Shown here piece after piece: positions 7,600 through 59,946 of a stretch of DNA of 64,000 bases. Where the stretch lies: assembly GCA_965178125.1 (NCBI GenBank), contig OZ237748.1, forward strand, positions 186,001 to 250,000. Direction: 5' to 3'. The stretch is from Bilabrum cf. latius. Lineage: Eukaryota. A program made the translations under genes and the position numbers. Below the pieces are notes generated by a model, which did not search any database, was not told where the DNA came from, and saw nothing but the letters and a program-made list of their open reading frames with translations. Numbering within the stretch: the stretch's first letter is position 1; each line of letters starts with the position of its first letter.

Positions 7600-9138
7600 A
7601 TGGCAACGTCAAGTTGTATGAAGTTATGCAGGTGCGCTAATATATCGTGCATGCACCATAAACGATGGTATATTGATGCGAACAATGCTGGTTCTACGGG
7701 GTTTATCGCGTGGCTGCTTGTGGTTGCATGTGCGTCGTTCTTGACAATTGCTGCGGCAGACTCTGCGACGTCAGCAAAATTGCACGCGAGCACTACTAGC
7801 CGTTCTCATCATCCGTATGATTTTGCTCTCAATTTACGCGGCCCGCTTCGGAATGAGCCGGCGTCAAAGCCTTCAGTCCGATCGGGATCGGGCGACCGAT
7901 CTGATGGGTGCAGCCCAGTGCAATGCACCAAAGCACGTGAAGCAAGTGTGCAGTTTCCTACTCATGGTATTTTGCCGTTGCACCAGGAATTGTCTTCACC
8001 GCATCCATACGGTGGTGAAGAAAGCCGGGCGCAAGAAGCCGAAGATGCGACTGCTGACGACTCGGAGGTGCCGGCCCTGCCCTGCTGCACCACTGGCAAG
8101 TACTACCAGCCGTGCAGTGCAGTGCAGTGCGGTGATGGCGGCGGAGATGCTGACTAGATGCAGGACAGTTCGTGTATGTGCAAAGAAGGTGCAGAGGAGT
8201 GCGCTGCCAACTTCGGCTGCTTGGATGGCCTGAAGTGCTCCTTTGACACGCACCGGTGTGTGAAGCCAGGCGGCCAGCCCGGTCTGTATGTGCGCGTGGT
8301 CGGCCTGCGGCTTCATTCCAGTTACTACGCCCGGTATCTGCACAGGCTGGTGCACATAATTAAGCACGGAATACAGCAAACGGCAGGGGCGCGCAGTGTG
8401 TCTTTCCTGCAAGTGTAGCAGGTGCATAGGTCAGACCGTGGCGACACAGAGCGGCTCACCGAGAACGATGATTCCGACGGCGCGGACATTAAGATCGACA
8501 TTCTTGCGCGGTTCGGAAGCGGAACAAGCGCGTTGGATGCTCGGGAGCGCGTGCTGGACTACCTTCGTGGCGGGTCACCCGCGGAGTCGGACCTGTCTTT
8601 AGATCATGATGGGTATGACGATCCCGTGGAGAGAGGATATGACGATCCCATGGAGAGAGGATATGACGATCCCATGGAGAGAGGATATGACGATCCCGTG
8701 GAGAGAGGGTATGACGATCCCGTGGAGAGAGGATATGACGATCCCATGGAGAGAGGATATGACGATCCCATGGAGAGAGGATATGACGATCCCATGGAGA
8801 GAGGATATGACGATCCCATGGAGAGAGGATATGACGATCCCATGGAGAGAGGATATGACGATCCCATGGAGAGAGGATATGACGATCCCATGGAGAGAGG
8901 ATATGACGATCCCGTGGAGGGAGGGTATAGAGCGTTCTACCTAGCGGAGGAAGCATACGAAGACTACGATGCGGAAGGAATCGAAGGTACCGGTATCCAC
9001 GGTACCACTTTGCCCACCCTGGGGAACTATGGCTCGCTACAAAAGGCACTGATAGTCAGTGCACCACCCTCCGATGGGGACGATGACCTGGCAATTGATT
9101 CTGCCGGCATCGAGGTCTCCACCTACGAGCTGCGCTGA
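7600..9138 (+). CDS. Secreted/anchored protein with Cys-rich + SEA-like module and (ERGYDDPM)n repeat; 2 in-frame TAG
   Basis: ORFs 7501-8157, 8158-8418 and 8422-9138 share one frame, are separated only by TAG (8155, 8416) and end in TGA. Hydrophobic FIAWLLVVACASFLTIAAA; CVKPGGQPGLYVRVVGLRL resembles CVAPVQLAGAYVAVIGLRI of the 11510 gene. Start codon uncertain. Confidence 0.7.
8611..8928 (+). repeat. Coding tandem repeat, 24 bp (ERGYDDPM/V), ~13 copies
   Basis: GAGAGAGGATATGACGATCCC(A/G)TG repeated in frame. Confidence 0.95.
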
Positions 9139-9394
9139 ACCCGATCGTAAAATGGAACAAGAGGGGGTCGCAAATTCAATTTTGTTCGTAGCGGGCACGG
9201 GTGAACGCAACTGTATTCGAATTGATCAAGTTCAAGGCGCTGCGCTCATTGGCGGGTGTGCTGTCACTGCCACCCGTGTGTTGAATGGTGTCTGTCACCC
9301 AGCACAAAGCAGGCTCCGCTGCTCATTCCACCCGACTCCGGAACGATAAGATGGGGTCGGAGCCGCTGCATGGCGATGCGCGGTGGCCGTGGAG

Positions 9395-9809
9395 GGAGGC
9401 ATTCGTCACCACCCGCGGCCTGATCAGATCAGTGATCGTGTCGGAGGCATTCGTCACCACCCGCGGCCTGATCAGATCAGTGATCGTGTCGGAGGCATTC
9501 GTCACCACCCGCGGCCTGATCAGTGATCGTGTCGGAGGCATTCGTCACCACCCGCGGCCTGATCAGATCAGTGATCGTGTCGGAGGCATTCGTCACCACC
9601 CGCGGCCTGATCAGTGATCGTGTCGGAGGCATTCGTCACCACCCGCGGCCTGATCAGTGATCGTGTCGGAGGCATTCGTCACCACCCGCGGCCTGATCAG
9701 TGATCGTGTCGGAGGCATTCGTCACCACCCGCGGCCTGATCAGTGATCGTGTCGGAGGCATTCGTCACCACCCGCGGCCTGATCAGATCAGTGATCGTGT
9801 CGGAGGCAT
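9395..9809. repeat. Minisatellite with mixed 48-bp and 43-bp units, ~9 copies
   Basis: GGAGGCATTCGTCACCACCCGCGGCCTGATCAG(ATCAG)TGATCGTGTC; units differ by a 5-nt indel. Confidence 0.95.
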
Positions 9810-11509
9810 CGAAATCGCCGAAGGCTTGGCTGCTGGACAGGGGGCGGGAGTTCCGGCTAGGCGTGTGGCTCAGAAACGACGATAACACCCCGATCTCTCG
9901 TCGCCTTGCCAGTGCCAGTGCTGACAGTGCCTCGATGAATGTGCCTTGCAACGGCCCTCTTGTGGGCGCGACCGTGGGGGCAAGGTTACTGTTGGAGGGA
10001 GAGGACGAGCAGGGACGAGTAGTGCGGAGGGAGGTGACTGCCACGGATAATCTCAGGATTCTGACGCAACTGGCGTTGATCTGTACGCTGCACCGAATCC
10101 GTTTTAGCCTGACGATCCGGTAGGAATTGGGATGCTCATTGCTCATAGAGCACTTTAAAGCGTCGGCATTCAAGTTGATCAAGGCGCTTCGAGTCATTTC
10201 TTGTATTGGTTTAGAAAAACCACGGTACGAATCATCCTCTAATGCCGTCGAATAAGCAGATTTTGCCTTGATGCCGTCGAATCGTTGCTCTTCTGCTCAA
10301 CCCCGTCAGTGGGTAAGAGCAAGTTCCACAGAAAACCCCGATAATCTAGGCAATTAATACATTAAGTGAAAGATAAACACAAGGGTGGATGCTGGTGAAG
10401 CTGAATGCTCAATAAACATAACAAGTGTGGCCAATCAATACCTACGTACAATTTGATGTATATCCCCTTTCATTGAGACATTTAAGCTCACAAAGAGTAG
10501 TAAATATCACTAATAATTAACCAACTCGATTTTCTGGCCATGATTCTCCCACAAATGTGGCGAAAAACACCGATAATGAATGTCCACACCATATTACAGT
10601 GCAATGCATACATACTCGTCACGCATGTTGCGACCAACAGCAGCCTGCTGGCGGAAGTGTCCTGCGACGTCGCCTCATCCCCACCTGCTGCTGGCTCGTG
10701 AAGGTCTATTTGTGGTACGCTTAAAATACAAGATAGCATTCAAAGCTGCGTTGTGAATAACAGCGCCCTTCAAATGTGAGACGCGACGACGGACCTCGCC
10801 CGTCTCCGTGGCGATGACGGGGTCTGGCGACAGCGAGCTTTACGTGCGATATTTGTGCTGAATGCAGTGCGCACCGGCCCCGATTTTAGATTTCCTGGAT
10901 GTTTCAAAAGTACCTCAACTTTGCGTGCCAGTTGGATGCAAGGAGCGGCCGTAGGGAATTGGGTCAACAGCCGATCAATGAATCCATGCTGATGGCAGCC
11001 GCAATCACTGCTGTACTGCGAAATGTCGGAATGGTATGCTGTTATTCATTTTGAAAGCTCATTAACATGCATTGCACCACCTGATGCCTGTTTGGACCCT
11101 TGGATAGCTGTGCATTATGCCTCATCACTGGCAGTGTCCCACGTGGTCGATCCAAACACCTTAGTTAGACTCCGTTTTAGTGCGCGTGAAGTATGACATC
11201 TAGGGAACTATATGCATTTTTAGCATATTGTGCCAGCTAGTATGACCTAACTTTTTGTGTAATCGCAGTATTAAAGGCCGAAGCCGAACGACAGCGCCGG
11301 CGGGGTCGACTCCGCAGAAAATCCACCTGGTAACGAAAACCAGCCTTATTTGAGGACTTTCGCTCCCATTTTACAGTATCGTCGATCATTTCTAACGGTC
11401 TATGGCGAATTATCGAGCCGAAATTAGCTGCAATGCAGCCGGCAAGCAACCGTCAACTGGGGTGCATCAGCTACAGCCATTCAGGGCCGCCGCCACGCAG
11501 CCGCCGCGC

Positions 11510-14500
11510 ATGACGATCCTTACCCTTGCAGCAATCGTATGCATGTCGCAGTCCTCTTCGGCCCAGAGTCCGTTGCCCTCTCCCTCTCCCGCCGCTGCCG
11601 GTACCATCGTCTCATCTGCGACCAAGATCGCGCAGGGGCTCAGCGGATTGCCTTCCAGCTTTCCCCAGGCCGGGGACTCCTTCGGGCAGTCCGCACAGTC
11701 AATGGGGGATATGGACGGGGATGGAATTGAGGACATGATCGTGTTTCTGTACTCTGGAGATGGCGGGAGCGTCTCGAGTGCAGGCAGTTTTGCCATCTTG
11801 CACATGAACCGGGATGCCACCGTGAAGGACTTCCGGGAGTACTGGCTGGGAACCGGTGGTGGGATCGACGATTCGATCGCGGGACAGGCGGGCTCTCAGT
11901 TCGGTGAAGGCGCAAACCGCTTCGACCAGCCGTCGGGGGACGACCCTGACCAGCCTAGGGTATTCGTGGGGCAGCCGACGTACACTGCATCCTCGCTCAA
12001 TAACGTGGGTCGGGGCTTCATCCTCCGGTTCGATGGCGAGACTGTGACGAGTGTGACTCAGCTGTTCAACGGGCTGAACGGAATCCCGGCGGGGCACTTC
12101 AGCGCCGGGGGACGTTTCGGTTTCGCGTCCACCGGTGGATTGGGCGACGTGGACGGCGACGGGTACCACGATCTGGCAGCGAGCTCGATCCTCTCCTTCG
12201 CCGGCGTATCCCAGGGCGGCATCATCCACCTGTTCTTCCTAAACGGTGACGATACGGTCAGCAGCATCAAGCAGCTGTCTCAGGCAGCGGGCGGCGGATT
12301 CGACGGGCTTTCGTCCTCCGTGGAGTGGCTCGGCTACAGCATGGTCGCGATGACTCCCCGCGGCCCGGGCAGGAACGTCGACCTCGTGATCGGAGCAGCG
12401 AAGTCTGACGTCATCATTCTGTGCGGAATCGACACGTCGGGTGACGTGGTGAGCGGATCGATCGAGGTGCTGGACAACGGGCAGGAGGGCGTCCCCACAG
12501 GAACGTTCGTTTCGGGTTCGCGGGTCGGGGGCGGCCTCGCCAACTTGGGCGACATCGACGGCGACGGGCAGACGGACATCGGAAACGGGGCGTTTGTCTA
12601 CGACAGCGGGGGCAGCACGCTGACGGGCCAGAGCCACATCCTGTTCCTGAACCCCGGCGGCGAATCGGACGCCGTTAAGAGCGTTACCACGTTGACGTCA
12701 TCCACGTCAGGGCTCAGCGGAGTGCAGTCGGCGGGCAGCAGGGCTGGCATCGTGGGTGCCTTCGATGACCTCAACGGGGACGGGAGGGCGGATTTGATCT
12801 TCCGGGCGGCGCACGACACTACTGGAGGGTCCTTTACGGGCGCGGTGCTCGTGGCATCGCTCGGCGGACCGGCTCCTTCGCCCTCGCCGGCTCCTCAAGG
12901 AACGCTCGTCGAGGTCACGGTGATCGGCCAAGACGAGGGCGGGCTGCCGGTGACATTCCCCGAGGCGGGTGACCAGTTTGGCCACCAGGCAGCTGCGATC
13001 GGAGACATGGATGGGGACGGGATCGAGGACGTGGCTGTGTTCATTCAGCTCAGGGACGCCGGGGGAGTCTCGAGTGCGGGCGCTTTTGCCACCTTACATA
13101 TGAACCGGGATGCCACCGTGAAGGACTTCCGAGAGTACTGGCTGGGAACCGGCGGTGGGATCGACGATTCGATCGCGGGACAGGCGGGTTCTCAGTTCGG
13201 AGGTGGGATATGCCGGTTTGACCAGCCCCGGGGAACAGATGGGGACGAGCCAAGGCTTGTGGTCGGCCAGAACGATTACGACGACACGGGAGGTGCAGGG
13301 GCAGGGGCAGGACGGGCCTACATACTCAGGATGCATCCAACGAGCGGTGCGGTGACGAGCGTGATCACGCTGGGCAGCGGCTTGGGAGGTCTGCCTGCCG
13401 GCTTCCTCAGCAGCGGCGATCGATTTGGCGCCTCTTCCGCCGCACTGGGCGACATTGATGCCGATGGACTCAACGATATTGCGGTGGGGGCCTCTCGGTC
13501 TGACAGCGGGGGCAGCGACGGAGGTGCCGTGCACATATTCAGGATGAATGGGGACGACACGGTGAAGGCGCATTCCATCGTATCGCAGGCCACGGGCAAC
13601 GGCCTTGATGGCATCAGCCCGTTCATCGAGAGGATCGGCACTTCCGTTGCAGCCATGAGCCCGAGGGGCACAGGACGTGCGGTGGATCTCGCGATCGGTG
13701 CCCCGCTCTCTGACACAGTGGTACTGGTGGGAATCGATTCCAGCGGGCAGGTAGTGTCTGGATCAATCGAGGTGCTAGAAGACGGTGCGGGGGGCATTTC
13801 GTCAGGGACTATCACGGGAAGCACTCAATTTGGGACCGGCATCACAAGCCCTGGCGATCTTGACGGAGACGGGGTGAGTGACCTCGTGATCTCTGCACCT
13901 GCGGACGACACGGGCGGGGCCGATTCTGGGAAATCGATCGTTCTGTACATGAACGCGGGTACGGGAACAAACGCTGTCAAAGGAGTTCTTGAGCTCACTA
14001 TCGGCACTCTGGGTCTCACTGGGAAGCAGGAAACCAGCTCGCAAACAGGCGTGGCTGCTGCCTTCACGGACCTGAACGGAGACGGCAGACCCGCGTTGAT
14101 TTTCGGTGCACCAGCAGCGGCTTCCAACGGCGGACAGGTGCTTATTGCGACCATGGGTGGACCGAGACAGTCGCCTTCAACGAGCCCAACACCCAGCATC
14201 ACGCCCAGTACATCGCCCACGTCGTCATCGACAAGCACCAGCAGCGCGACACCCACGCCCAGTATCACTGCCAGCACCACTGCCAGCCCAAGCAACAGCC
14301 CAACAGCGTCAGTCTCCCCGTCAAGCAGTCCCAGCCCGAGCACCACGGCCAGCCCGAGCCCAACGAGCAGCAGCAGTCCCAGCCCGAGCACCACGGCCAG
14401 CCCGAGCCCAACGAGCAGCAGCAGTCCCAGCCCGAGCACCACGGCCAGCCCGAGCCCAACGAGCAGCAGCAGTCCCAGCCCGAGCACCACGGCCAGCCCG

Positions 14501-17500
14501 AGCCCAACGAGCAGCAGCAGTCCCAGCCCGAGCACCACGGCCAGCCCGAGCCCAACGAGCAGCAGCAGTCCCAGCCCGAGCACCACGGCCAGCCCGAGCC
14601 CAACGAGCAGCAGCAGTCCCAGCCCGAGCGCGACAGCCAGCACCAGTCCCAGCGGATCTGTCTCCCCATCGAGCAGTCCCAGCCCGAGCACCACGGCCAG
14701 CCCGAGCCCAACGAGCAGCAGCAGCCCCAGCCCGAGCACCACGGCCAGCCCGAGCCCAACGAGCAGCAGCAGCCCCAGCCCGAGCACCACGGCCAGCCCG
14801 AGCCCAACGAGCAGCAGCAGTCCCAGCCCGAGCACCACGGCCAGCCCGAGCCCAACGAGCAGCAGCAGTCCCAGCCCGAGCGCGACAGCCAGCACCAGTC
14901 CCAGCGGATCTGTCTCCCCATCGAGCAGCCCCAGCCCGAGCACCACGGCCAGCCCCAGCAGCAGCCCGAGCATGGGTTCATCTGCCAGCCCCAGCAGCAG
15001 CCCGAGCATGGGATCATCTGCCAGCCCCAGCAGCAGCCCGAGCATGGGATCATCTGCCAGCCCCAGCAGCAGCCCGAGCATGGGATCATCTGCCAGCCCG
15101 AGCAGCAGCCCGAGCATGGGATCATCGGCCAGCCCCAGCAGCAGCCCGAGCATGGGATCATCTGCCAGCCCCAGCAGCAGCCCGAGCATGGGATCATCTG
15201 CCAGCCCCAGCAGCAGCCCGAGCATGGGATCATCTGCCAGCCCGAGCAGCAGCCCGAGCATGGGATCATCGGCCAGCCCCAGCAGCAGCCCGAGCATGGG
15301 ATCATCTGCCAGCCCCAGCAGCAGCCCGAGCATGGGATCATCTGCCAGCCCCAGCAGCAGCCCGAGCATGGGATCATCGGCCAGCCCCAGCAGCAGCCCG
15401 AGCATGGGATCATCTGCCAGCCCCAGCAGCAGCCCGAGCATGGGATCATCTGCCAGCCCGAGCAGCAGCCCGAGCATGGGATCATCGGCCAGCCCCAGCA
15501 GCAGCCCGAGCATGGGATCATCTGCCAGCCCCAGCAGCAGCCCGAGCATGGGATCATCTGCCAGCCCCAGCAGCAGCCCGAGCATGGGATCATCTGCCAG
15601 CCCCAGCAGCAGCCCGAGCATGGGATCATCGGCCAGCCCCAGCAGCAGCCCGAGCATGGGATCATCTGCCAGCCCCAGCAGCAGCCCGAGCATGGGATCA
15701 TCTGCCAGCCCGAGCAGCAGCCCGAGCATGGGATCATCGGCCAGCCCCAGCAGCAGCCCGAGCATGGGATCATCTGCCAGCCCCAGCAGCAGCCCGAGCA
15801 TGGGATCATCTGCCAGCCCCAGCAGCAGCCCGAGCATGGGATCATCTGCCAGCCCCAGCAGCAGCCCGAGCATGGGATCATCTGCCAGCCCCAGCAGCAG
15901 CCCGAGCATGGGATCATCTGCCAGCCCGAGCAGCAGCCCGAGCATGGGATCATCTGCCAGCCCCAGCAGCAGCCCGAGCATGGGATCATCTGCCAGCCCC
16001 AGCAGCAGCCCGAGCATGGGATCATCTGCCAGCCCCAGCAGCAGCCCGAGCATGGGATCATCTGCCAGCCCCAGCAGCAGCCCGAGCATGGGATCATCTG
16101 CCAGCCCCAGCAGCAGCCCGAGCATGGGATCATCTGCCAGCCCCAGCAGCAGCCCGAGCATGCGATCATCTGCCAGCCCCAGCAGCAGCCCGAGCATGGG
16201 ATCATCTGCCAGCCCCAGCAGCAGCCCGAGCATGGGATCATCTGCCAGCCCCAGCAGCAGCCCGAGCATGGGATCATCTGCCAGCCCCAGCAGCAGCCCG
16301 AGCATGGGATCATCTGCCACTGCCTCTTTAAGCCCTAGTCCGAGCACAATGAGCACCCCAGCCGCAAGCGCGAGCCCGACACCTTCCTCAAGTTCACTCG
16401 TCACACCATCCCCACGGAACGCGACTTGCTTCGACGCTATACTCAACGGACAGGAAGGCGACATCGATTGCGGGGATCCAAGTGACAGCTCGTGTCCCGG
16501 GTGCACACAAGGCAGGGCCTGCACTTTCACCGCAAATTGCGCGGCTGGTCTCATTTGCGGGCAGCAGCAGCGAAGGTGCGTAGCTCCCGTGCAGCTAGCC
16601 GGCGCGTACGTAGCCGTGATTGGGCTCCGGATTGATGGTGTGGCGAGTGCGCAGTTCGTCGACGTCCTGCAGGCACCGCTGCTTGACGGCGTGATTTCAG
16701 CGACCGGCGCAGAGGCGGCTTCCGTGACTCGGATCGTGGAGCTTGGCTCCACCTCATCATCATCATCATCATCATCTTCGGCTTCCCGGTTCCTGGCGTC
16801 TGGTCTGGGTCAGGTTCTGCAAAGTCTTGCACCTCGTGCGCTGCAAGGCGCTGCACCCGGCGTGGAGGTTGACCTGCAGGCGAGGCTGCCGCCGGGTGCA
16901 GACGAGCAGAAGGCCAAGGAGGCTCTCTCTGCATACCTATCATCTAGCGAAACAGGAGCGGGCGAACCTGGGGCTGGAGGAGCGGGTGGAGGTGGAAGCG
17001 GTGAAGGCAAGGAGAACGGTAGCGGAAGCGACGGGGGAGGTGCCGGTGGGGGTGGTGCGGGCCAGCCGCCCGTGGAGGGTCCGAGCCTTCTTGCCGACCT
17101 GCGTGCGGCGGCCGAGTCCTCCGCCGCTATCGATTCCGGATCCATATAGGTTGCAACCGCGGAGGCCACCATCGAGACGGTGGTTCTGACGGCAGATGTG
17201 GTGATGGAGGAGGCCCCACCCTTGCCGAGCGGCAACCAACAAGGCGGGGATGGAGGGGGAGGTGGCGGTACTGGCACTGGTGCTGGCACTGGTGCTAGCA
17301 TTGGGGGTGATGATGACGATTCACTGTCTACTGGTGCGATCGCAATTCTGGCCGTGTTCGGTGCGGTCGTGCTGCTGGTGGTCGCCGTTGGATATTTTAT
17401 CGTGAGTGCCCGGCGGCGGGCGGTTCCCGGCAGAGCAGGCTGCTGCTCTTCATCTTCGAAGTACGCGGCCTCGCACGCACCCCATCCGTCCGGCTCGAAC

Positions 17501-17797
17501 GACGCGATGTCAAAGACGAGATCAACGGCAGAGATGCTGGAACGCCGGAGCACCCAGGAGGCGGCTCTCCCGAGGCGAAGCAACGCAAACGGAGATGATG
17601 GTGGGGTCAAGAGAACTGCACTGGACGACATCGGCGTTGATGTGAACGTGGACGACGATGATGAGGCGGGGCCTGGCAGCATGTACGCCGCTTTGGCATC
17701 CGGGCCGGGGGGGTCATCTGCCGCCTCCGCCTCTGCTTCTTGCCCCCACAAGGGGGGCGGGGACGACGGCGCCATCGATGACGGGGTGCACGTGTGA
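11510..17797 (+). CDS. FG-GAP (integrin-alpha-like) double beta-propeller surface protein with Ser/Pro/Thr stalk, Cys-rich + SEA-like module, TM helix and tail; 1 in-frame TAG
   Basis: Signal-peptide-like MTILTLAAIVCMSQSSSA; many GDxDGDG..D Ca-binding motifs in two duplicated halves. ORF 11402-17149 continues in frame across TAG 17147 into 17180-17797, which supplies the TM helix (AIAILAVFGAVVLLVVAVGYFIV). Ends in TGA. Confidence 0.88.
14320..16320 (+). repeat. Coding mucin-like stalk: 48-bp units (SPSPSTTASPSPTSSS) followed by ~38 36-bp units (SPSSSPSMGSSA)
   Basis: Directly visible in-frame tandem repeats. Confidence 0.95.
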
Positions 17798-29863: not shown

Positions 29864-30320
29864 GCGCTGCAGCAACGGATGATCCGATGCGGCACTCTGC
29901 AAAAGGTATTCGTCGTGAGGCGACGAGAGGGTTACCTATGCAGGAAGAGGTATGGCTCGAACTCAGTGCAGTAGCACGCTGGTTGGCAAACGGGCAGTCT
30001 ACACAATATCAACTTGACACCAGTCTATAGCCTATGAATGGTCCTGCGTTGATGACTAGTTGAAATTTGCTGCTTTGAATGAAAGAAGCTTGACTCAGAA
30101 TTTAGCCAACTTCTTCAAAGCTACACCATACTAATGATAATAAATTGAAGTCTGCACTGCCAACTTGAAACGGCTCAGCTACAGCACCAAGATCGGTTGC
30201 CTTTCTTAGACTCTATCCATGAGGATCCATCCGGATCAAAACGGGCAAATAGTTTAAAGTTGTAAGTTTCGTAAACAATAATCAAGAGTCCCAGCCTCAC
30301 TGTCCTCACCTGCCCCTCCA

Positions 30321-34650: not shown

Positions 34651-34870
34651 CACCACCCCCATGCACCGCCCTCCGGAACATCACCAGCCTCTCTCTCCTC
34701 ACCTGCCCCTCCGTCAGCTTGATCCACCACCCCCATGCACCGCCCTCCGGAACATCACCAGCCTCTCTCTCCTCACCTGCCCCTCCGTCAGCTTGATCCA
34801 CCACCCCCATGCACCGTCCTCCGGAACATCACCAGCCTCTCTCTCCTCACCTGCCCCTCCATCAGCTCAA
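34651..34870. repeat. 74-bp tandem repeat, ~3 copies, duplicating the 3' end of paralog 2
   Basis: ATGCACCG(C/T)CCTCCGGAACATCACCAGCC... at 34661, 34735 and 34809. Confidence 0.9.
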
Positions 34871-38979: not shown

Positions 38980-39176
38980 ATAGGTTGTTCAATGATTGGA
39001 CCAGTTCTACGAGCGAATAATGGCCTAGATCTATTCACTTTGCAGATGTGACGAATGCGGTAGTCTACGGTGCTGGGTGCAATGCAAAAAATGCACATTG
39101 AGTTCAATCGGTTGAGAATGTTTTTATCCGGAAAACATTTTTGAAACCAAACGAGCTTCGATACCACGCGCGCGAT

Positions 39177-43465: not shown

Positions 43466-43496
<31 letters not shown>

Positions 43497-46400: not shown

Positions 46401-49400
46401 CGGGACCTCGCACCACTCCGAGTGTGACGAGTGCGATGGGTTATTCTCGGTACTCCAGCCCGTCACCTTGCACAGCAGCACGATGGAGCTGTCCTCATCT
46501 TCATCTTCGTTATTGTCGCCGCCTGCACCAGCCCCGGATGCGGCCTGCTTGCCCTTGCCTTTGCCCTTCCCCTTGGGCTTTCGGCTGTGTGTCCATCTGC
46601 CCACCACCACGGAGCCGGCGGCCGCAGCAGCGTCGCCCACCGCCAGACCCGATGCCCCTGGCTTGCACTCGTCACGATCTCCACCGGTAGAAGCACCGCC
46701 AGAGGCAGCAGATGAGGCGGCCGCCTTTGCCGCCTGGGTCTTCTCGCCGGGCTGCACCGACAGGTGGGTGGACAGCCAGAGGCGGGGGATGCGCCTACCA
46801 GTTTGACCACCCTGACCACCGCCGGATTGACCACCCCCGTCGGAGATACCCGTGAGTCTCACCCTCACGGTGCTCCCGATCGGCTGCAGCTCAATGGCCT
46901 GGGCCATCTCCCGCTGGGTGAGGGGCGCGCTGGCCTTGCGACCGTCGCGCTTCTTGTCTTCCTCTTCTTGTTCATCACCGTCATCACCGGCTGCCTGGAT
47001 TCGGAGCCACCTACTCCTGACCTCCCTCGCCGGGATAATACCCCGCACGCCGCCGAAGAAGGTGACCCACGCCCCCGCGCGCCCGCAGCCGGTCACGTAC
47101 CCGGTGCGGACCACCGGCGCACTCGTCACGCTACCACCACTCGTCACACCATCATCTCCACTGAGGGCCGCCCTCGCCTGCTCCCAGGACACCAAGCACT
47201 CGTCATTCGCCGGCCGCATCGCCACGCTCCTGTCCCCTGGCCTGAGTCGGGGGGCGGCCCCGTCCTCCTCTCCAAGGCCAACGAGGGAGGCCTTGAGTGT
47301 GACGAGTGCGCGCAGCCCCTGTCCCTTGTTCCCCTTGCCCTTGCTGTGCCTCTCCTGCTCCACCTCCAGCACACGAGCCCACACCGCCTTGCCCTTCTTC
47401 ATCAATGCAGCCGCTCGCCCGCCCACACCCCCTCCCGCGGCGCTAGCAGCGTCAGACACGTGCGGAGGTGTGACGACTAAAGGCAGCCGGGGGCCCCTGA
47501 CCATCGTCCCGTCGGGTCCTTCGATCCACTGGTCCGTGTACAGCCGGATCGCCTTGCCCGGACGCCCCTGCTCGGCCACAAGCGCCCGCACCAGCTGGCC
47601 CGGCTTCAGGTCACCCAGGCCGGTCGCTACCTCATCGTCCTCCTCGGCGGCCCGCCCCGCCAGGATCCGCCCTTGTTCCCTGGACCTCACCCCCCGCAGC
47701 CGCAGCAGCCCCTCGAAGCCCATGGCACCAGACACGCGCGCCACCACGGCCGTGCCCGGGGGCGCCTCCCGCAGAGCAGAGACCGCCTGTGCCGCCGCCT
47801 CTAGCTTTCTAGAGGACTCGCCCGTCCGCGCGGCGTCCGAAGCAGAGCTACCCGCCAGCGCGGCCGCCTTCTCCTTTGCGTTGGCAGCCTTCTTTCCGCC
47901 CCTTCTTGCCCTCCGACCGGCACCTGTGGACGCGTCCGCTGCTGCTGCTGCTGCTGACGCCTTGCCGTCGGTCTTGTCGGACTTGCTCTCGGCTTTCTCC
48001 TCGTCGTCATCCGCGACAGCTGTATCCTCATCCTCATCATCGGACTCAGATTCAGAATCAGAAACGGAATCCGAATCGGAGTCGGAATCACTGTCCTCCT
48101 CCTCCTCCTCCTCCTCCTCCTCCTCATCATCATCCTGCATGGCCTTGGCAGCCGACACCTGCGCATCCTTGGACCCAGACGATGGCGCTGATGTCGACGA
48201 CAATGAAGAAGCTACAGCGGCTGCAGCACTCTACTTCTTCTTCTCCTTACCCTTGCCCTCGATCGCGCGAGATCCGGCCAGTGCAGTGGCGGGCACGACC
48301 CCGGCGCTGCCCCAGCCCCCCTCCCGCACCCACGCCGGGAGCTGATCGAACACACTCGTCATACCTGTACCATCACCTGCAGTTCCCTCAGACGGCCGCG
48401 AGCGCTTGGTACCCAGCTTGGGCACACTCGTCACACCACCTGGACCTGCCTTGTCGCCGCGCTTGGACCCCCCCGAGGATGACGATGACGGCGATGCGTC
48501 GTGCAGCACGCACAGCTCCGTGCCGGTCTCACTCGTCACACCTTGGCCGCCCCAGGACACCACGGCCCTGCGGCCATCCACGTGCCTCGTCACGGCGCCG
48601 CGCACAGCGGAACCTTTCCCGAGCATGGCTTCCGCCAGCTGCTGCCCCCTCAGGCAGAGCACGTGGGGGGAGGCCGAGAAGCACACGCGCCTCGAGGCGG
48701 GGTCGATGGCCGCAACCCGGAGCCACAAATCGCGGGGGCGGCGCAGGGGCGGAAGCTCCGGCCAGGCCGCTTCCGAGCTTGTCGTAATGGAGTGTGACGA
48801 GTGAGATCCATCCGTCCTCCTCCGCTTCTTCGCATGCTGTTGCCCGCCAGCGCCGGCATCGTCGGATTCGGAGCCTGAGTCATCATCGCTGCTGTCGTCA
48901 TCATCACCTCCGAGCTCCAACGCACTCGTCACATCGGCATCGGGCTGCCTCAGCACGCCTGGCTTGGGGACGGGCGGCGCGTCGGCCATCTCCTTGGGCA
49001 GCTCTTGTTCCCTGGCGCGGGCAGCAGATACCCTGGCGGCATGCGCTGCATCGGCCCTGTCGCACCTCTTTAGCCACCTGCGGATCTCTTCCTCCCAACC
49101 GGCTTTGGCCACCCCGCCCAGGTGCCAGGCGCTGACGGTGCCCACCAGCGCACCCCCGCACACGCTCACCCACACGCCCCCCTTGCACAGACCCCCCACG
49201 CGGCCGCGCACTAGCTGGCCCGGCTTCACGCTGCCCCATCCCTGCACCCCGCCAAGCGGAACCGCCGCGGCGCCAAACCGGCTGGGCCCACCCTTCCCCT
49301 TCCGCTTGCCCTTGGCTGCAGCTCCATCGGATCCGGAGTCCCGCGCGATCTCGTACCCTCCCGTCCGGACCTGCAGCACAGCCGTCCCGTCTCCCCTCAC

Positions 49401-50788
49401 ACTCGTCACACGGGCACCCAGCAGATACCCCCCCTCCGTCAGGGGGTTCCCCTGCCCGTCTGTCCCGTCAGTCGCTGAAAAGGGAAGGAACCCCCGGAGG
49501 CCCCTGCCGCCCGACGCACCTGCCCCCGCACCACCGTTCCCTGCACCCTCCCCCGCCCCGACCCCCAGATCCACCACCCACCCCTCGTCCTCGGCCGACA
49601 CCAGCTGCCCCCCCACCGGCGTGCCAGCCTCCACGTACGCCCTTGACAACCCCATCGCCAGCCGCGCCGGGGCCAAACTGCACGCTACTTCCAACCCGGA
49701 AGAACCCCTCGACCCGCTGGCGGCCTGTGCCCTGGCCGCCGCCGCCCCCTCCTCGTCCCCTCTGGCAGCCAGGAGCGCGGCACGGGCCTCTGCCGCCTGA
49801 GCCGCGGCCGCCGACTTGGGCTTGGGAGCGAGCGTGGAGGCCCGGAGCAGCTGCCCGGGGCGGAAGAATGCCGTGAGCGGGGCGGGGCCGCGTGCATCTG
49901 CGCTTGGCCTGGATTCATGATCCTAATCGTCCTCATCGTCCTCTTCTTCGCTTTCATCCTCTTCTCTCGCATCGTTTGCAGATTCCGCACCCCCCTTGCC
50001 CCTGCCCCTGCCCCTGCCCCTGCCCCTGCCCCTGAGCCATCCCCTGACCCTCCTCCTCACCACGGCGCCGCACTCCTACAGGGTCACCCTGCCCTTGATC
50101 CCAAAGGGGAGGGACAGCGTCAGGGACCGGGAGCCCACACTCGTCACACTCGCCAGGACCAGAGTGCCGGGCCGGATGGTCTGCGATGAGCAATCAGGGG
50201 AGGTCAACGGGGGGAGTGCGGTGGTCGCGGTACACAGGCAGATTCACAGCATCGCAAGCATCAGGGCAGCAACGAGTGGTTGTACACGTATATCACGCTA
50301 GGCATTGCCTTTATCTTCCTCACCTTCGCCTTGAGGACCCACGCCTCCCTGGGTGCCTGCACCCCGGCTCGCCTTGCCACCGACAAGGGGCCCTGGGTCT
50401 TCCCCGCCAATGATGATGATGACGATGACGATGATGCGATTAATCCAGCTCCTCTTGCATGACCTCTGCGGCTTGACTCGGTGCGGGCTTCCATGCCCAT
50501 GCCTCCGCCACTGCGGCTGCTGTCTGCCTGCTGCTCGGCTCGGGAGCTGGAATTCGACTTTCGCCTGCCGCTGCCTCTGGAACGGCGCTGCGACTGCTGC
50601 TCCTGCACTTGGGAGTTTGCATCAGCTCCGGCAGTCCCGTCGGTTGCTGCCGATGCTGCGGGGCCGCTGCTTCCAAACAGCCTGGGAATGTGCTCGAGCG
50701 AACTGGAGGCAGCTGGCTTCTTCGGCTTTGTGCCGGGCATAGGCACCGCCCGAGATAGTCCTCTCGGAAATGATGACTGCTGATCCAT
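39177..50788 (-). CDS. RRP5: rRNA biogenesis protein RRP5/PDCD11 homolog, ~3820 aa, join(50324..50788,39177..50180); 6 in-frame TAG
   Basis: N-terminal SSFPRG; multiple S1-like motifs (IRPGTLVLASV...LSLPFGIKGRV, FFRPGQLLRA, GCFLQMPGGVVGRCRLKDLGDGFVSEPQRTFAPGRVVRGVVLSV); C-terminal HAT repeats (WIRWMSH...ARAVGERA, FRAWLAFESRCG). Exon 2 is one frame broken only by TAG at 50076, 49923, 48231, 46038, 45696 and 44850, and ends in TGA. Confidence 0.92.
50181..50323 (-). other. Spliceosomal intron (143 nt, phase 0) in RRP5
   Basis: Donor AAG|GTGAGG; acceptor CCCCTGATTGCTCATCGCAG| with a CTGAT branch-like site. Removal joins AWVLKAK to TIRPGTLVLASV, restoring the frame and the first S1 motif. Confidence 0.85.
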
Positions 50789-51280: not shown

Positions 51281-54200
51281 GGGGCCCGCAGGAAGACGCA
51301 GGGGGGAAGGGAACTGCGATGGAAAGGGCCCGCAGGAAGACGCAGGGGGAAGGGAAATGCGATGAGAAGGGCCCGCAGGAAGACGCAGGGGGAAGGGAAA
51401 TGCGATGAGAAGGGCCCGCAGGAAGACGCAGGGGGGAAGGGAACTGCGATGAGAAGGGCCCGCAGGAAGACGCGGGGGGAAGGGAACTGGGATGAGAAGG
51501 GCCCGCAGGAAGACGCGGGGGGAAGGGAACTGGGATGAGAAGGGCCCGCAGGAAGACGCAGGGGGGAAGGGAACTGCGATGAGAAGGGCCCGCAGGAAGA
51601 CGCAGGGGGAAGGGAACTGCGATGAGAAGGGCCCGCAGGAAGACGCAGGGGGAAGGGAACTGCGATGAGAAGGGCCCGCAGGAAGACGCAGGGGGAAGGG
51701 AACTGCGATGAGAAGGGCCCGCAGGAAGACGCAGGGGGGAAGGGAACTGGGATGAGAAGGGCCCGCAGGAAGACGCAGGGGGAAGGGAACTGGGATGAGA
51801 AGGGCCCGCAGGAAGACGCAGGGGGGAGGGAAATGCGATGAGAAGGGCCCGCAGGAAGACGCAGGGGGGAAGGGAACTGCGATGAGAAGGGCCCGCAGGA
51901 AGACGCAGGGGGGAAGGGAAATGCGATGAGAAGGGCCCGCAGGAAGACGCAGGGGGGAAGGGAACTGGGATGAGAAGGGCCCGCAGGAAGACGCGGGGGG
52001 GAGGGAACTGCGATGAGAAGGGCCCGCAGGAAGACGCAGGGGGGAAGGGAACTGCGATGAGAAGGGCCCGCAGGAAGACGCAGGGGGGAAGGGAACTGCG
52101 ATGAGAAGGGCCCGCAGGAAGACGCAGGGGGAAGGGAACTGCGATGAGCAGGGCCCGCAGGAAGACGCAGGGGGAAGGGAACTGCGATGAGAAGGGCCCG
52201 CAGGAAGACGCAGGGGGGAAGGGAACTGCGATGAGAAGGGCCCGCAGGAAGACGCAGGGGGGAAGGGAACTGGGATGAGAAGGGCCCGCAGGAAGACGCA
52301 GGGGGAAGGGAACTGGGATGAGAAGGGCCCGCAGGAAGACGCAGGGGGAAGGGAAATGCGATGAGAAGGGCCCGCAGGAAGACGCAGGGGGGAAGGGAAC
52401 TGGGATGAGAAGGGCCCGCAGGAAGACGCGGGGGGGAGGGAACTGCGATGAGAAGGGCCCGCAGGAAGACGCAGGGGGGAAGGGAACTGCGATGAGAAGG
52501 GCCCGCAGGAAGACGCAGGGGGGAAGGGAACTGCGATGAGAAGGGCCCGCAGGAAGACGCAGGGGGAAGGGAACTGCGATGAGCAGGGCCCGCAGGAAGA
52601 CGCAGGGGGAAGGGAACTGCGATGAGAAGGGCCCGCAGGAAGACGCAGGGGGGAAGGGAACTGCGATGAGAAGGGCCCGCAGGAAGACGCAGGGGGGAAG
52701 GGAACTGGGATGAGAAGGGCCCGCAGGAAGACGCAGGGGGAAGGGAACTGGGATGAGAAGGGCCCGCAGGAAGACGCAGGGGGAAGGGAAATGCGATGAG
52801 AAGGGCCCGCAGGAAGACGCAGGGGGAAGGGAACTGGGATGAGAAGGGCCCGCAGGAAGACGCAGGGGGAAGGGAAATGCGATGAGAAGGGCCCGCAGGA
52901 AGACGCAGGGGGAAGGGAACTGCGATGAGAAGGGCCCGCAGGAAGACGCAGGGGGAAGGGAACTGCGATGAGAAGGGCCCGCAGGAAGACGCAGGGGGAA
53001 GGGAACTGCGATGAGAAGGGCCCGCAGGAAGACGCAGGGGGGAAGGGAACTGCGATGAGAAGGGCCCGCAGGAAGACGCAGGGGGAAGGGAACTGCGATG
53101 AGAAGGGCCCGCAGGAAGACGCGGGGGGAAGGGAACTGGGATGAGAAGGGCCCGCAGGAAGACGCAGGGGGGAAGGGAACTGCGATGAGAAGGGCCCGCA
53201 GGAAGACGCAGGGGGGAAGGGAACTGCGATGAGAAGGGCCCGCAGGAAGACGCAGGGGGAAGGGAACTGCGATGAGAAGGGCCCGCAGGAAGACGCAGGG
53301 GGGAGGGAACTGGGATGAGAAGGGCCCGCAGGAAGACGCAGGGGGTAGGGAACTGCGATGAGAAGGGCCCGCAGGAAGACGCAGGGGGAAGGGAACTGCG
53401 ATGAGAAGGGCCCGCAGGAAGACGCGGGGGGAAGGGAACTGCGATGAGCAGGGCCCGCAGGAAGACGCAGGGGGAAGGGAACTGCGATGAGAAGGGCCCG
53501 CAGGAAGACGCAGGGGGAAGGGAAATGCGATGAGAAGGGCCCGCAGGAAGACGCAGGGGGAAGGGAAATGCGATGAGAAGGGCCCGCAGGAAGACGCAGG
53601 GGGGAAGGGAACTGGGATGAGAAGGGCCCGCAGGAAGACGCAGGGGGGAAGGGAACTGCGATGAGAAGGGCCCGCAGGAAGATGCGGGGGGAAGGGAACT
53701 GCGATGAGAAGGGCCCGCAGGAAGACGCAGGGGGAAGGGAACTGCGATGAGAAGGGCCCGCAGGAAGACGCGGGGGGAAGGGAACTGCGATGAGAAGGGC
53801 CCGCAGGAAGACGCAGGGGGAAGGGAACTGCGATGAGAAGGGCCCGCAGGAAGACGCAGGGGGAAGGGAACTGCAATGAGAAGGGCCCGCAGGAAGACGC
53901 AGGGGGGTAGGGAACTGGGATGAGAAGGGCCCGCAGGAAGACGCAGGGGGAAGGGAACTGCGATGAGAAGGGCCCGCAGGAAGACGCAGGGGGAAGGGAA
54001 CTGCGATGAGAAGGGCCCGCAGGAAGACGCAGGGGGAAGGGAACTGCGATGAGAAGGGCCCGCAGGAAGACGCAGGGGGAAGGGAACTGCGATGAGAAGG
54101 GCCCGCAGGAAGACGCAGGGGGGAAGGGAACTGGGATGAGAAGGGCCCGCAGGAAGACGCAGGGGGAAGGGAACTGCGATGAGAAGGGCCCGCAGGAAGA

Positions 54201-55531
54201 CGCGGGGGGGAAGGGAACTGCGATGAGAAGGGCCCGCAGGAAGACGCAGGGGGAAGGGAACTGGGATGAGAAGGGCCCGCAGGAAGACGCAGGGGGAAGG
54301 GAACTGCGATGAGAAGGGCCCGCAGGAAGACGCAGGGGGAAGGGAACTGCGATGAGAAGGGCCCGCAGGAAGACGCAGGGGGAAGGGAACTGCGATGAGC
54401 AGGGCCCGCAGGAAGACGCAGGGGGAAGGGAACTGGGATGAGAAGGGCCCGCAGGAAGACGCGGGGGGGAAGGGAACTGGGATGAGAAGGGCCCGCAGGA
54501 AGATGCAGGGGAGAAGGGAACTGCGATGAGAAGGGCCCGCAGGAAGACGCGGGGGGAAGGGAACTGCGATGAGAAGGGCCCGCAGGAAGACGCGGGGGGA
54601 AGGGAACTGGGATGAGAAGGGCCCGCAGGAAGACGCGGGGGGAAGGGAACTGGGATGAGAAGGGCCCGCAGGAAGACGCAGGGGGGAAGGGAACTGCGAT
54701 GAGAAGGGCCCGCAGGAAGACGCGGGGGGAAGGGAACTGCGATGAGAAGGGCCCGCAGGAAGACGCGGGGGGAAGGGAACTGCGATGAGAAGGGCCCGCA
54801 GGAAGACGCAGGGGGGAAGGGAACTGCGATGAGAAGGGCCCGCAGGAAGACGCAGGGGGGAAGGGAACTGGGATGAGAAGGGCCCGCAGGAAGACGCGGG
54901 GGGAAGGGAACTGGGATGAGAAGGGCCCGCAGGAAGACGCAGGGGGAAGGGAACTGCGATGAGAAGGGCCCGCAGGAAGACGCAGGGGGGAAGGGAACTG
55001 GGATGAGAAGGGCCCGCAGGAAGACGCAGGGGGAAGGGAACTGGGATGAGAAGGGCCCGCAAGAAGACGCAGGGGGGAAGGGAACTGCGATGAGAAGGGC
55101 CCGCAGGAAGACGCAGGGGGGTAGGGAACTGGGATGAGAAGGGCCCGCAGGAAGACGCAGGGGGAAGGGAACTGCGATGAGAAGGGCCCGCAGGAAGACG
55201 CAGGGGGGAAGGGAACTGGGATGAGAAGGGCCCGCAGGAAGACGCAGGGGGAAGGGAACTGCGATGAGAAGGGCCCGCAGGAAGACGCGGGGGGAAGGGA
55301 ACTGCGATGAGCAGGGCCCGCAGGAAGACGCGGGGGGAAGGGAACTGCGATGAGAAGGGCCCGCAGGAAGACGCGGGGGGAAGGGAACTGCGATGAGAAG
55401 GGCCCGCAGGAAGACGCAGGGGGGAAGGGAACTGCGATGAGAAGGGCCCGCAGGAAGACGCAGGGGGGAAGGGAACTGCGATGAGAAGGGCCCGCAGGAA
55501 GACGCAGGGGGGAAGGGAACTGCGATGAGAA
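51281..55531. repeat. Satellite array, 43-44 bp unit, roughly 98 copies, G/A-rich + strand
   Basis: GGGCCCGCAGGAAGACGCAGGGGG(G)AAGGGAACTG(C/G)GATGAGAA; the G-run length varies and the unit is not a multiple of 3. Confidence 0.98.
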
Positions 55532-55579
55532 GTGTTCGCATGGGCCCATGATGGGAGGCGCCAACACGGGGATGACAAT

Positions 55580-57078: not shown

Positions 57079-59946
57079 ATGACAGCTGCCCCAACTGTAT
57101 TCGCTGCGAGCGGGCACGAAGCGTCCCTAGCCGAAAGGCAGGACCTCGCAGTCAATGTGGCAGCAGAGCACTCCTTGAGGCGAATACTGAGTATTGCAAT
57201 AGGAGCTACGTTCAGTGTCAAGTCCCACCAGAAGATCTCCGATACGAAAGGCGGCTTCACCGGCGAGCTGAACGATGGTAGCATCTTCGGATAGTCCATG
57301 GCATCCCTGGGCGATCTGGACGGAGATGGCACCAACGACCTCGCAGTGGGAGCATACGGTGATAATGATGGAGGGAAGGACCGCGGGGCTACTTGGATCC
57401 TCTTCTTGAACGCCAACGGCACCGTCAAGTCCCACCAGAAGATCTCCGATACGGAAGGCGGCTTCACCGGCGAGCTGAACGATGATGACTGGTTCGGATA
57501 TTCCATGGCATCCTTGGGCGATCTGGACGGAGATGGCACCACCGACCTCGCAGTGGGGGCACCTGATGATGGTAGTGGAGAGGAGGACCGCGGGGCTACT
57601 TGGATCCTCTCCTTGAACAGCAACGGAACCGTCAAGTCCCACCAGAAGATCTCCGATACGGAAGGCGGCTTCACCGGCGAGCTGGACGACGTGGAAAACT
57701 TCGGGTGGTCCGTGGCATCCTTGGGCGATCTGGACGGAGATGGCACCACCGACCTCGCAGTGGGGGCACCCAGTGATAGTAGTGGGTCGAGACGCGCGGC
57801 TACTCTAATCATCCTGTTGAACACCGACGGAACTGTCAAGTCCCACCAGAAGATCTCAGATACGGAAGGCGGCTTCACCGGCGAGCTGATCGATAATGAC
57901 TTCTTCGGATAGTCCATGGCATCTCTGGGCGATCTGGACGGAGATGGCACCACCGACCTCGCAGTGGGGGCATACGGTGATGATGATGGTAGTGGAGGGG
58001 AGGACCGCGGGGCTACTTGGATCCTCTTTTTGAACACCAACGGCACCGTCAAGTCCCACCAGAAGATCTCCGATACGAAGGGCGGCTTCACCGGCGAGCT
58101 GGGCGATTGGAACTTCTTCGGATATTCCATGGCATCCCTGGGCGATCTGGACGGAGATAACATCACCGACCTCGCAGTGGGGGCATACGGTGATAATGAT
58201 GGAGGGATGTTGCGAGGGGCTACTTGGATCCTCTTCTTGAACACCGACGGAACCGTCAAGTCCCACCAGAAGATCTCAGATACGGAAGGTGGCTTCACCG
58301 GAGAGCTGGGGGATTGGAGCTTCTTCGGGTGGTCCGTGGCATCCTTGGGCGATCTGGACGGAGATGGCACCAACGACCTCGCAGTGGGGGCAGGCGGTGA
58401 TGCTGATGGAGGGGAGGGTCACGGGGCTACTTGGATCCTATTCAATGAGGTGGTATTGCCAACACCGAGCAACAGTCCGACCCCGAGTAGTACCCCCAGC
58501 ACCTCCCCCACGCCGAGCATCACCAGCAGCCCCAGCAACTCCCCCACGCCGAGCATCACCAGCAGCCCCAGCACCTCGCCCACGCCGAGCATCACCAGCA
58601 GCCCCAGCAACTCCCCCACGCCGAGCATCACCAGCAGCACCTCGCCCACGCCGAGCATCACCAGCAGCCCCAGCACCTCCCCCACGCCGAGCATCACCAG
58701 CAGCCCCAGCACCTCCCCCACGCCGAGCATCACCAGCAGCCCCAGCACCTCCCCCACGCCGAGCATCACCAGCAGCCCCAGCACCTCGCCCACGCCGAGC
58801 ATCACCAGCAGCCCCAGCACCTCGCCCACGCCGAGCATCACCAGCAGCCCCAGCACCTCCCCCACGCCGAGCATCACCAGCAGCCCCAGCACCTCGCCCA
58901 CGCCGAGCATCACCAGCAGCCCCAGCACCTCCCCCACGCCGAGCATCACCAGCAGCCCCAGCACCTCGCCCACGCCGAGCATCACCAGCAGCCCCAGCAC
59001 CTCGCCCACGCCGAGCATCACCAGCAGCCCCAGCACCTCGCCCACGCCGAGCATCACCAGTAGCCCCAGCACCTCGCCCATGCCGAGCACTTCGAGCACC
59101 GACGGTGCCACGGGATTGACATGCAGTGATGGCGAGACCAACGGCCAGGAGACCGACATTGACTGCGGGGACGCGTCTGCTGAGGACTGTCCATTGTGCG
59201 CCCAGGGCAGGACCTGCATCGTCACAGCCAACTGCGCAAGTGGACTCGTGTGCTCGGCCAGCAGCACCATGTGCACGTCCCCCACGAGGCGCAAGGGCAG
59301 GCGCATCACGGTGTCCGGGACCAAGGTGTCGAGCGTGACCACGCCCGTCTTCCAGTCGAACTTGATGACTCCCTTCATCGCAGCGATCGAAGACGTGTCC
59401 GGAAATGATGATGTGGTCATCGACCGGCTGACAACGTCCTCGACCAGCAGGGGCCGCTCCCCGCAGGCCTCGGGCTCAGAGGAAGATGGCATTTCCGCCG
59501 CTGAGCTGGATTTCACCGCAACTATTCCGCTGGATCGCACCGACGCGGAGTAGACGAGGCAGGACATCCTGGACTTCCTGCGGGGCAACATGAGCACGTC
59601 AACAAACGCGACGCTGGTGTAGGTGCTCAGGATGGCTGCGCCCGTCGAGATGACCCGGCTACTGGTGGTTGATACGACCAGCATTGCCGTGGAGGTCACT
59701 GTACAAGAAGAGGACCTGCAAGTGGAGGAGGCTGTGGCTCCTCCCATGGACGAGGATGACGACGAGGGAGGGGACAGCATGGTCATCATCATCGTAGTGG
59801 CGGTGGTCATCGTCATTGCCGTCATGGTGGGAGCAGCCGCCTACTTCTTCATAGCTCTATGCAGGAACACCAAGGCAGGGATTGCCAAGAAGGACGACAA
59901 GGCGATCGATGTGAAGGTAGAGCTTAGGGCGGCAGAGGCCGTGTAA
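57079..59946 (+). CDS. FG-GAP beta-propeller surface protein (6 near-identical repeats), Ser/Pro/Thr stalk, Cys-rich + SEA-like module, TM helix; 4 in-frame TAG
   Basis: ORFs 56923, 57298, 57916 and 59623 share one frame, with TAG at 57292, 57910, 59551 and 59620 and a TAA end. Repeat VKSHQKISDTEGGFTGEL...FGxSMASLGDLDGDGTTDLAVGA; TM IIIVVAVVIVIAVMVGAAAYFFIAL. Start is uncertain and there may be an upstream exon. Confidence 0.88.
58490..59090 (+). repeat. Coding 36-bp repeat (SPSTSPTPSITS), ~16 copies
   Basis: In-frame tandem repeat forming a mucin-like stalk. Confidence 0.95.

Follow-up and report, generated by a model that had tools for sequence, protein, structure and literature searches.

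In a GC-rich stretch of eukaryotic nuclear DNA, UAG probably encodes glutamine and UAA and UGA end the genes

The window studied here is a 64,000-nucleotide (nt) stretch of contig OZ237748.1 (assembly GCA_965178125.1, positions 186,001 to 250,000 of the forward strand), and positions below count from its first letter. On its two strands it carries a much enlarged RRP5 gene, a gene for a large RCC1-repeat protein, an orphan gene with a partial paralogue and several genes for membrane-anchored surface proteins (Table 1). The window is eukaryotic nuclear DNA with few introns, as its gene contents and the exon/intron structure of RRP5 indicate, and its GC content of 60.9% bears out an original prediction, made from the sequence, that the genome is GC rich. 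The subject of this report is the codon UAG, which appears as TAG in frame in most of these genes. We consider it very likely that UAG is a sense codon here, with glutamine its most likely meaning, and that UAA and UGA are the only terminators.

Table 1. Genes and gene parts in the window, with their in-frame TAG codons and stop codons (TM, transmembrane; ORF, open reading frame; aa, amino acids)
Feature	Positions	Strand	In-frame TAG	Stop	Basis or remark
3' part of a gene for a membrane-anchored surface protein	3-1628	+	none	TAA 1626-1628	TM helix, then short tail
512-aa ORF	7600-9138	+	2 (8155, 8416)	TGA 9136	24-nt coding tandem repeat
Surface protein with FG-GAP repeats	11402-17797	+	1 (17147)	TGA 17795	Ser/Pro/Thr stalk, TM helix
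RCC1-repeat protein, 2745 aa	21626-29863	+	24	TAA 29861	Pfam; TIG domain, several TM helices
Orphan protein, 1147 aa	30321-33764	-	10	TGA 30321-30323	
Paralogue of the N-terminal third of the 30321-33764 gene	37111-38979	-	4	TGA	36% identity
RRP5 exon 2, much enlarged by low-complexity inserts	39177-50180	-	6 (50078, 49925, 48233, 46040, 45698, 44852)	TGA 39177	S1_RRP5 and S1 matches
Putative RRP5 intron, phase 0, 143 nt	50181-50323	-			GT-AG ends; read from sequence
Putative RRP5 exon 1, exactly 155 codons	50324-50788	-	none		ATG 50788; read from sequence
Surface protein with six FG-GAP repeats	57079-59946	+	4 (57292, 57910, 59551, 59620)	TAA 59944	Stalk, TM helix

Pfam searches assigned domains to the larger genes. 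The 21626-29863 product matched WD40_RLD (7.4e-141), RCC1_2 in 13 stretches and TIG, and it has a multi-pass membrane part; its relatives in the PDB were UVR8, RCC1 and HERC proteins. FG-GAP matches were found in two surface proteins, with values of 9.3e-26 for 11402-17797 and 4.4e-42, in six stretches, for 57079-59946. The products of 3-1628 and 30321-33764 gave no Pfam match, and a homologue search with the second of these products (P0003) returned none of near length. RRP5 was recognized by S1_RRP5 (8.9e-07) and S1 matches, and its nearest Atlas clusters combine S1 and HAT domains, as is typical of RRP5. The predicted first exon carries an N-terminal FPRG motif, which we take to be typical of RRP5/PDCD11. 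The gene appears to have one intron only, and this putative intron led us to rule out kinetoplastid-like polycistrons. At ~3,820 aa the RRP5 protein is about double the usual size (Atlas RRP5 clusters, 1,705-1,806 aa), with its S1 domains interspersed with Gly-Lys, Asp/Glu, Ser and Ala runs, and a search with residues 1-2000 among shorter proteins found no homologue. The TAG-free C terminus was placed by the Atlas in "Eukaryota" only, with Chlorophyta and Streptophyta commonest, which is a weak lead.

Stop codons are distributed very unevenly among the reading frames. Seven long ORFs on both strands, namely the six genes of the original prediction and the TAG-free ORF 3-1628 (plus strand), hold 47 TAG, 0 TAA and 0 TGA codons in frame across 11,719 codons (RRP5 counted as the minus-strand frame 39177-50243). 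The other two frames of the same ORFs contain 64-66 TAG, 25-30 TAA and 224-267 TGA. When the related metagenome loci described below are added, the total is 0 in-frame TAA or TGA per 17,628 codons, with 24-31 TAA and 113-267 TGA in the off-frames. In-frame UAG makes up ~0.4% of codons, conserved domains included. Under the standard code the longest frames in the window are 1918 and 1891 aa; reading TAG alone as sense yields fused ORFs of 3689, 2751, 2134, 1182 and 1011 codons on both strands, and reading TAA alone as sense leaves frame lengths almost unaltered. Our counts reproduce those of the original prediction gene by gene (2, 1, 24, 10, 6 and 4, or 47 in all), as they do its terminal codons (TAA at 1626, 29861 and 59944; TGA at 9136, 17795, 30321 and 39177).

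Every complete ORF ends in UAA or UGA. Among the eight window ORFs, five stop at TGA (those above and 37111) and three at TAA, and all seven complete ORFs of the related loci stop at TGA, so that TAG terminates 0 of 15. With no UAA or UGA in frame and both present in the off-frames, the predicted role of these two codons as stops is supported. Two limits apply to this pattern. The ORFs were delimited by TAA and TGA, so genes that do end at a TAG would escape notice, and the lack of TAA and TGA inside them is true by construction; independent support for a sense UAG comes from domains and homology that run across the TAGs. The counts do separate UAG from UAA. If both were glutamine codons, the CAA/CAG ratio seen would predict 14.3 TAA codons in frame for the window and 20.8 for the related loci, ~35 altogether; observing none has a Poisson probability of about 6e-16, and the UAR = Gln code (NCBI table 6) is excluded on this ground.

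Domains do run across the TAGs. In the RCC1-repeat protein, the register of ten 72-residue RCC1 repeats is kept over 10 TAGs, and since the host repeats remain in register, these TAGs are not intronic. In the 57079-59946 product, the six FG-GAP repeats extend across two TAGs, and TAG also lies within an S1-like repeat of RRP5. Both FG-GAP proteins have a Ser/Thr/Pro stalk and, after the TAGs, a TM anchor: TAG 17147 lies upstream of the TM helix of its product, and the anchor of the other is downstream of TAGs 59551 and 59620. This is what had been predicted, that readthrough of TAG joins ectodomains to their TM helices.

These observations bear on whether UAG has a dual, context-dependent meaning, sense within genes and stop at some gene ends. 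In Condylostoma, all three stop codons are context dependent. Terminating TAGs would be hidden by the way in which the ORFs were delimited, and the last TAG of 30321-33764 is only 35 codons before its TGA. However, none of the 15 complete ORFs needs TAG as a terminator, UAA and UGA both serve as dedicated stops, and five window genes continue past their last TAG into a TM anchor, a coding repeat or a further stretch of hundreds to thousands of codons. We therefore regard a dual meaning as very unlikely. That the genes are pseudogenes, or the TAGs an assembly or sequencing artefact, under the standard code is barely credible: decay or error would also have produced TAA, TGA and frameshifts, and none are found in 11,719 + 5,909 codons of window and related loci, and identical DNA is present in runs of three studies. 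In favor of a pseudogene, the 37111-38979 paralogue loses similarity midway and has little RNA-like cover.

Public sequencing runs provide a view of the orphan gene. The stretch 30321-33866 is present in seven public runs from three studies. DNA run X1 covers 29000-39500 evenly, whereas cover in the RNA-like runs X5-X7 is confined to 29000-30098, 30270-33784 and 39179 onward. The spacer 33914-34264 has a depth of 0 in X5-X7 and is evenly covered in X1; up to 39178, X6 and X7 have nearly no cover and X5 has low depth only. The RNA-like contig ends at 33784 and 30270 flank the ATG (33764) and the TGA (30321) of the gene. Contigs of X5 cross all 10 TAGs without a single difference, indel or joint, and the X6 and X7 pieces are likewise without differences. 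The pattern fits an unspliced, unedited mRNA, although contigs cannot prove it, and it shows no sign of the editing or splicing of TAG sites that would have refuted the original prediction. The RNA label of X5-X7 is a guess, which weighs against this use of the runs, and X5 was flagged as "probably DNA". TGTAA, the poly(A) signal of green algae, has 33 copies where 28.5 would be expected, none of them near the two RNA-like contig ends.

The same data bear on a standard code in which the TAGs are edited in the mRNA (U to C, giving CAG) or spliced out. This explanation draws on the guessed nature of X5-X7, but the 10 unchanged TAGs without joints, cover that tracks the genes and falls to 0 in a spacer that the DNA run covers, and TAGs within in-register repeats make it highly improbable.

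The paralogue next to the orphan gene behaves differently. Its similarity to the 30321-33764 gene fades beyond about residue 527. Over the wider minus-strand stretch 34800-38979, 36% identity extends over ~300 aa with one further 61-aa block, after which frame or similarity is gone; the stretch contains a 95-bp repeat in six copies, and X5-X7 cover it poorly or not at all. Here we may be seeing a pseudogene or a duplicate in decay; equally, introns may have escaped notice.

A second set of contigs was found through a short repeated sequence. The 10-mer GTGACGAGTG has 31 copies in the window, where 0.15 would be expected; they occur in both orientations, all lie within ORFs, and their extended consensus is rGT-GTGACGAGTG-yG. 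Copies lie for example at 12044, 28305, 33025 and 38243, and 21 of the 31 are inside 40559-50147. In RRP5, 16 of 16 sense copies encode Val-Thr-Ser and five of five antisense copies encode His-Ser-Ser-His. Three pairs are spaced exactly 18 nt apart, one copy is kept at the same place in the paralogues (33025 and 38243), and the TGA stop at 17795 falls within another. The 10-mer looks like a lineage marker and may have arisen by in-frame micro-insertion or as the footprint of DNA repair.

We scanned for two 10-mer copies 8 bases apart. Among metagenome contigs the scan returned 107 loci, of which six belong to the lineage, all from assembly Ga0136560 (L005, L020, L034, L054, L088 and L104); they have 55-61% GC, isolated in-frame 10-mers and eukaryote-type ORFs with in-frame TAGs. 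The other 101 loci were tandem repeats or unrelated genes. Eight ORFs in the six loci comprise 5,909 codons with 37 TAG, 0 TAA and 0 TGA. Their Pfam matches are PhyH, Abhydrolase_3, SET, TIP_N, Peptidase_S28 and EF-hand, and TAGs lie inside the Abhydrolase_3, PhyH and Peptidase_S28 matches. For a TAG-free stretch of the S28 peptidase, the Atlas gave "Eukaryota" only, with mixed phyla, which is too weak for placement, and a full-text literature search for the peptide motif GQSAGAH found no paper. In-frame against off-frame stop counts, domains over TAGs, unedited TAGs in RNA-like contigs and this second contig set together sustain the original claim that UAG is a sense codon.

Two further scans covered viral contigs and prokaryote genomes. 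The single locus among viral contigs was unrelated. Prokaryote genomes gave 41 loci, and five of these (L110, L117, L127, L132 and L148) are in one Planctomycetaceae metagenome-assembled genome that uses the standard code and is unrelated. In it the motif belongs to GTGACGA heptamer arrays, which form inverted pairs at gene ends and in linkers and resemble REP-like hairpins; they fit the motif pattern by chance of sequence.

The meaning of UAG was assessed from residues in homologues and in sibling repeats. Residues 1380-2400 of the RCC1-repeat protein gave 13 hits when searched exhaustively with HMMER. The top two are fragments, P0009 (184 aa, 78% identity) and P0010 (112 aa, 73%), both on Logan contigs with a listed length of 1,903 nt, and they have Q at both TAG sites that they cover (residues 1800 and 2005). 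P0009 terminates exactly ahead of TAG 1893; P0010 restarts at the next Met and ends one codon before TAG 2013. Because the fragments are cut at TAG sites or no more than one codon away, this relative probably shares the code. A search with the C-terminal part of P0002 among shorter proteins returned P0009 alone, again. An edited CAG would also account for Q in relatives, but the breaks look as if TAG stood in that contig, a further point against editing. The more distant P0011 (32% identity) has Q at 1893.

Repeats within the proteins agree with glutamine at several places. In the GQLG column, the best conserved of the TAG-bearing columns, TAG stands opposite CAG in nine of nine other RCC1 repeats (an invariant Q), and in the AVQI column it stands opposite CAG or CAA in seven of seven. 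The RRP5 sequence "PGqLV" parallels three PGQL(V/L) S1 starts in the same protein. A crude BLOSUM62 tally over 16 sites gave Q 35.2, Y 9.8, E 9.5 and S -8.0, with Leu outside the eight best. Rough BLOSUM62 likelihood ratios at the three Q-bearing sites favored Q over E by 23, over K or R by 64, over S by 181 and over Y by 512, and the BLOSUM80 ratios were larger. Pfam matches were also rescored with TAG read in ten ways, a test of low power in which the models conflict: RCC1_2 scored best with Q (456.2 bits; K 455.2, R 449.8, Y 443.5). In the hydrolase of L034, Q was top in the summed score of three models and Leu was the lowest-scoring real residue.

Several observations weigh against glutamine. 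P0011 has A at 1800, so that it shows Q at one of two sites. In the CMYG column (RCC1 column 21) TAG stands opposite TAC or TAT (Tyr) in nine of nine repeats, TAC occurs in three repeats at column 24, and in the FG-GAP repeats TAG is opposite Tyr or Trp (TAT/TGG). In the CWGSN column it is opposite Ser in seven of nine, the one paralogous column of six with Ser. Tyr, Ser and Trp codons are single-base neighbors of TAG, so these columns speak of mutational routes no less than of meaning. A single inherited event may lie behind all three AVqI TAGs. WD40_RLD scored best with Y (652.1 bits), followed by R (648.8), Q (609.3) and K (579.8); we gave this little weight because the score varies with the number of stretches that the domain parser counts. 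RCC1 left K (291.2) and Q (291.0) tied, ahead of R (287.6), Y (279.5) and Leu (274.0), the lead of Q over H in L034 was <1 bit, and Abhydrolase_3 was top with E (57.6). Two L104 TAGs occupy an EF-hand loop position where other L104 loops have D, Q or R; the usual residue of the consensus there is Glu. Distant homologues seldom have Q (P0017 and P0018 show A/A, F/Y and A/S), the paralogue of 36% identity has R, F, D and Q at TAG sites, and PDB homologues, in uninformative alignments, show A, K, G; A; and A, F, E, with Q, K and T in one low-scoring PHYHD1 stretch.

These points are the case for another residue, chiefly Tyr or Glu and with less likelihood Lys, Arg, Ser or Leu, and precedents exist for UAG as Ser in Scotinosphaera (PMC8271138) and as Leu in a rhizarian (PMC5304391). 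However, the relative of 73-78% identity has Q at two of two sites and P0011 at a third, the likelihood ratios of 23-512 favor Q, the best conserved TAG-bearing column reads GQLG, and Ser and Leu fare poorly in the tally. Another residue is consequently unlikely. Given that UAG is sense, glutamine is highly likely; as had been predicted it is the best reading, but not the sole one, as Tyr, Glu and Lys are compatible with some of the tests. Pyrrolysine was set aside, TAG at 0.4% of codons being in our judgement too frequent for it.

By analogy with published cases, UAG would be decoded by a tRNA-Gln with the anticodon CUA, which would be unable to pair with UAA, and eRF1 would lack UAG recognition while retaining that of UAA and UGA (PMC5304391). 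A tRNA scan gave 0 in the 64-kb window and 0 in the six related loci, an Rfam scan of the window gave 0 hits, and the eRF1 gene lies in neither the window nor the loci.

Beyond the code, the window contains what looks like a lineage-specific surface-protein family. Four genes of one 60-kb stretch (3-1628, 7600-9138, 11402-17797 and 57079-59946) have a common architecture: an ectodomain (FG-GAP in two), a Cys-rich module bearing a "DIDCGD"-type motif, a stalk of Ser/Thr/Pro or acidic repeats, and a TM helix with a short tail behind it. The three main intergenic satellites span 1.5-4.3 kb, with units of 81 bp x 35 (3945-6798), 69 bp x 22 (18962-20493) and 43 bp x 98 (51282-55532) and 96-97% matches; smaller arrays with 95-bp and 43-bp units lie at 3109-3673, 36442-37012 and 9395-9809. 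The satellite arrays are open in several frames and thus mimic long ORFs.

We tentatively propose that the window records an independent, undescribed origin of UAG as a glutamine codon, in a so far unsampled eukaryote lineage with a GC-rich genome and few introns, in which genes end mainly in UGA and a fixed 10-mer is scattered through the coding DNA, mostly as Val-Thr-Ser or His-Ser-Ser-His. According to PMC5304391 and PMC11687900, UAG and UAA are nearly always reassigned together, and the examples given there of a nuclear UAG-only change beyond ciliates come from a rhizarian, a fornicate and a green alga. If the proposal is correct, UAG would formerly have been a common terminator in a GC-rich genome, AT-driven codon loss (codon capture) would be no explanation, and an ambiguous-intermediate route through tRNA(CUA) would be favored. 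A case with 61% GC and TGA as main stop would be one more piece of evidence against models that explain reassignment by mutation (AT pressure) alone, and it would supply a genome, beyond transcripts, in which to read the tRNA(CUA) and eRF1 changes. There is also a practical consequence: standard gene callers truncate such genes at each TAG, so the relative's protein is in databases only as pieces of 112-184 aa, and annotation of this genome and the related metagenome contigs requires a table with TAG as Gln.

Known codes resemble that of the window to different degrees. UAR = Gln (NCBI table 6) is used by many ciliates, hexamitin diplomonads, some Ulvophyceae and Amoeboaphelidium. The window shares with them UAG as Gln, probably through a tRNA-Gln with a mutated anticodon, but it has no in-frame TAA, and TAA terminates three of its eight ORFs. 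The rhizarian exLh, in which UAG is Leu (PMC5304391), is alike in changing UAG only and in keeping UAA and UGA as stops, whereas Leu is among the worst fits here. In the green alga Scotinosphaera, UAG is Ser with UAA and UGA as stops (PMC8271138). This is likewise a UAG-only change, and the nearest Atlas clusters of the RRP5 C terminus, commonest in Chlorophyta and Streptophyta, point weakly that way, but Ser is found at 0 of 3 sites in the relatives, is negative in the tally and occurs in just one paralogous column (CWGSN).

Among ciliates, UAG alone is Gln in two phyllopharyngean lineages and in Protocruzia tuzeti; Phyllopharyngea have a GC content of 27.4-53.6%, and every species of the dataset ends its genes most often in UAA (PMC11687900). 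As in these ciliates, UAG is Gln in our preferred reading and frequent inside genes, and UAA is kept as a stop; unlike in them, GC amounts to 61% and genes end mainly in TGA. With its long genes, its 143-nt GT-AG intron and its satellites of 1.5-4.3 kb, the window has features that we take to be unlike a gene-sized macronuclear chromosome. A full-text search of the available literature, covering few subscription journals and judging papers other than those cited here by title and opening of the abstract, found no other GC-rich non-ciliate with this code. One detail in the background of the original prediction, which called the code table-15-like, is outdated, the attribution of table 15 to Blepharisma having been an error (PMC5304391).

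All three assignments recur in the fornicate Iotanema spirale, in which UAG is Gln and UAA and UGA are stops, used 104 and 15 times, respectively (PMC5304391). As there, UAG occurs in frame in the window and is not seen at gene ends, the stops are UAA and UGA, and the meaning inferred for UAG is Gln. The window differs in that its 15 complete ORFs, related loci included, end in TGA 12 times and TAA three times, where Iotanema spirale uses mostly UAA (Fisher p = 1.3e-7), and in its GC-rich coding DNA; the two may nevertheless be kin. This sharp contrast in stop usage is the one piece of evidence here that bears on the independent origin suggested in the original prediction. PhyH-type enzymes require oxygen, and the PhyH-family (phytanoyl-CoA dioxygenase) protein in one related locus is a weak argument against an anaerobe. 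The code described here is thus of a known type, in what seems to be an unsampled lineage.

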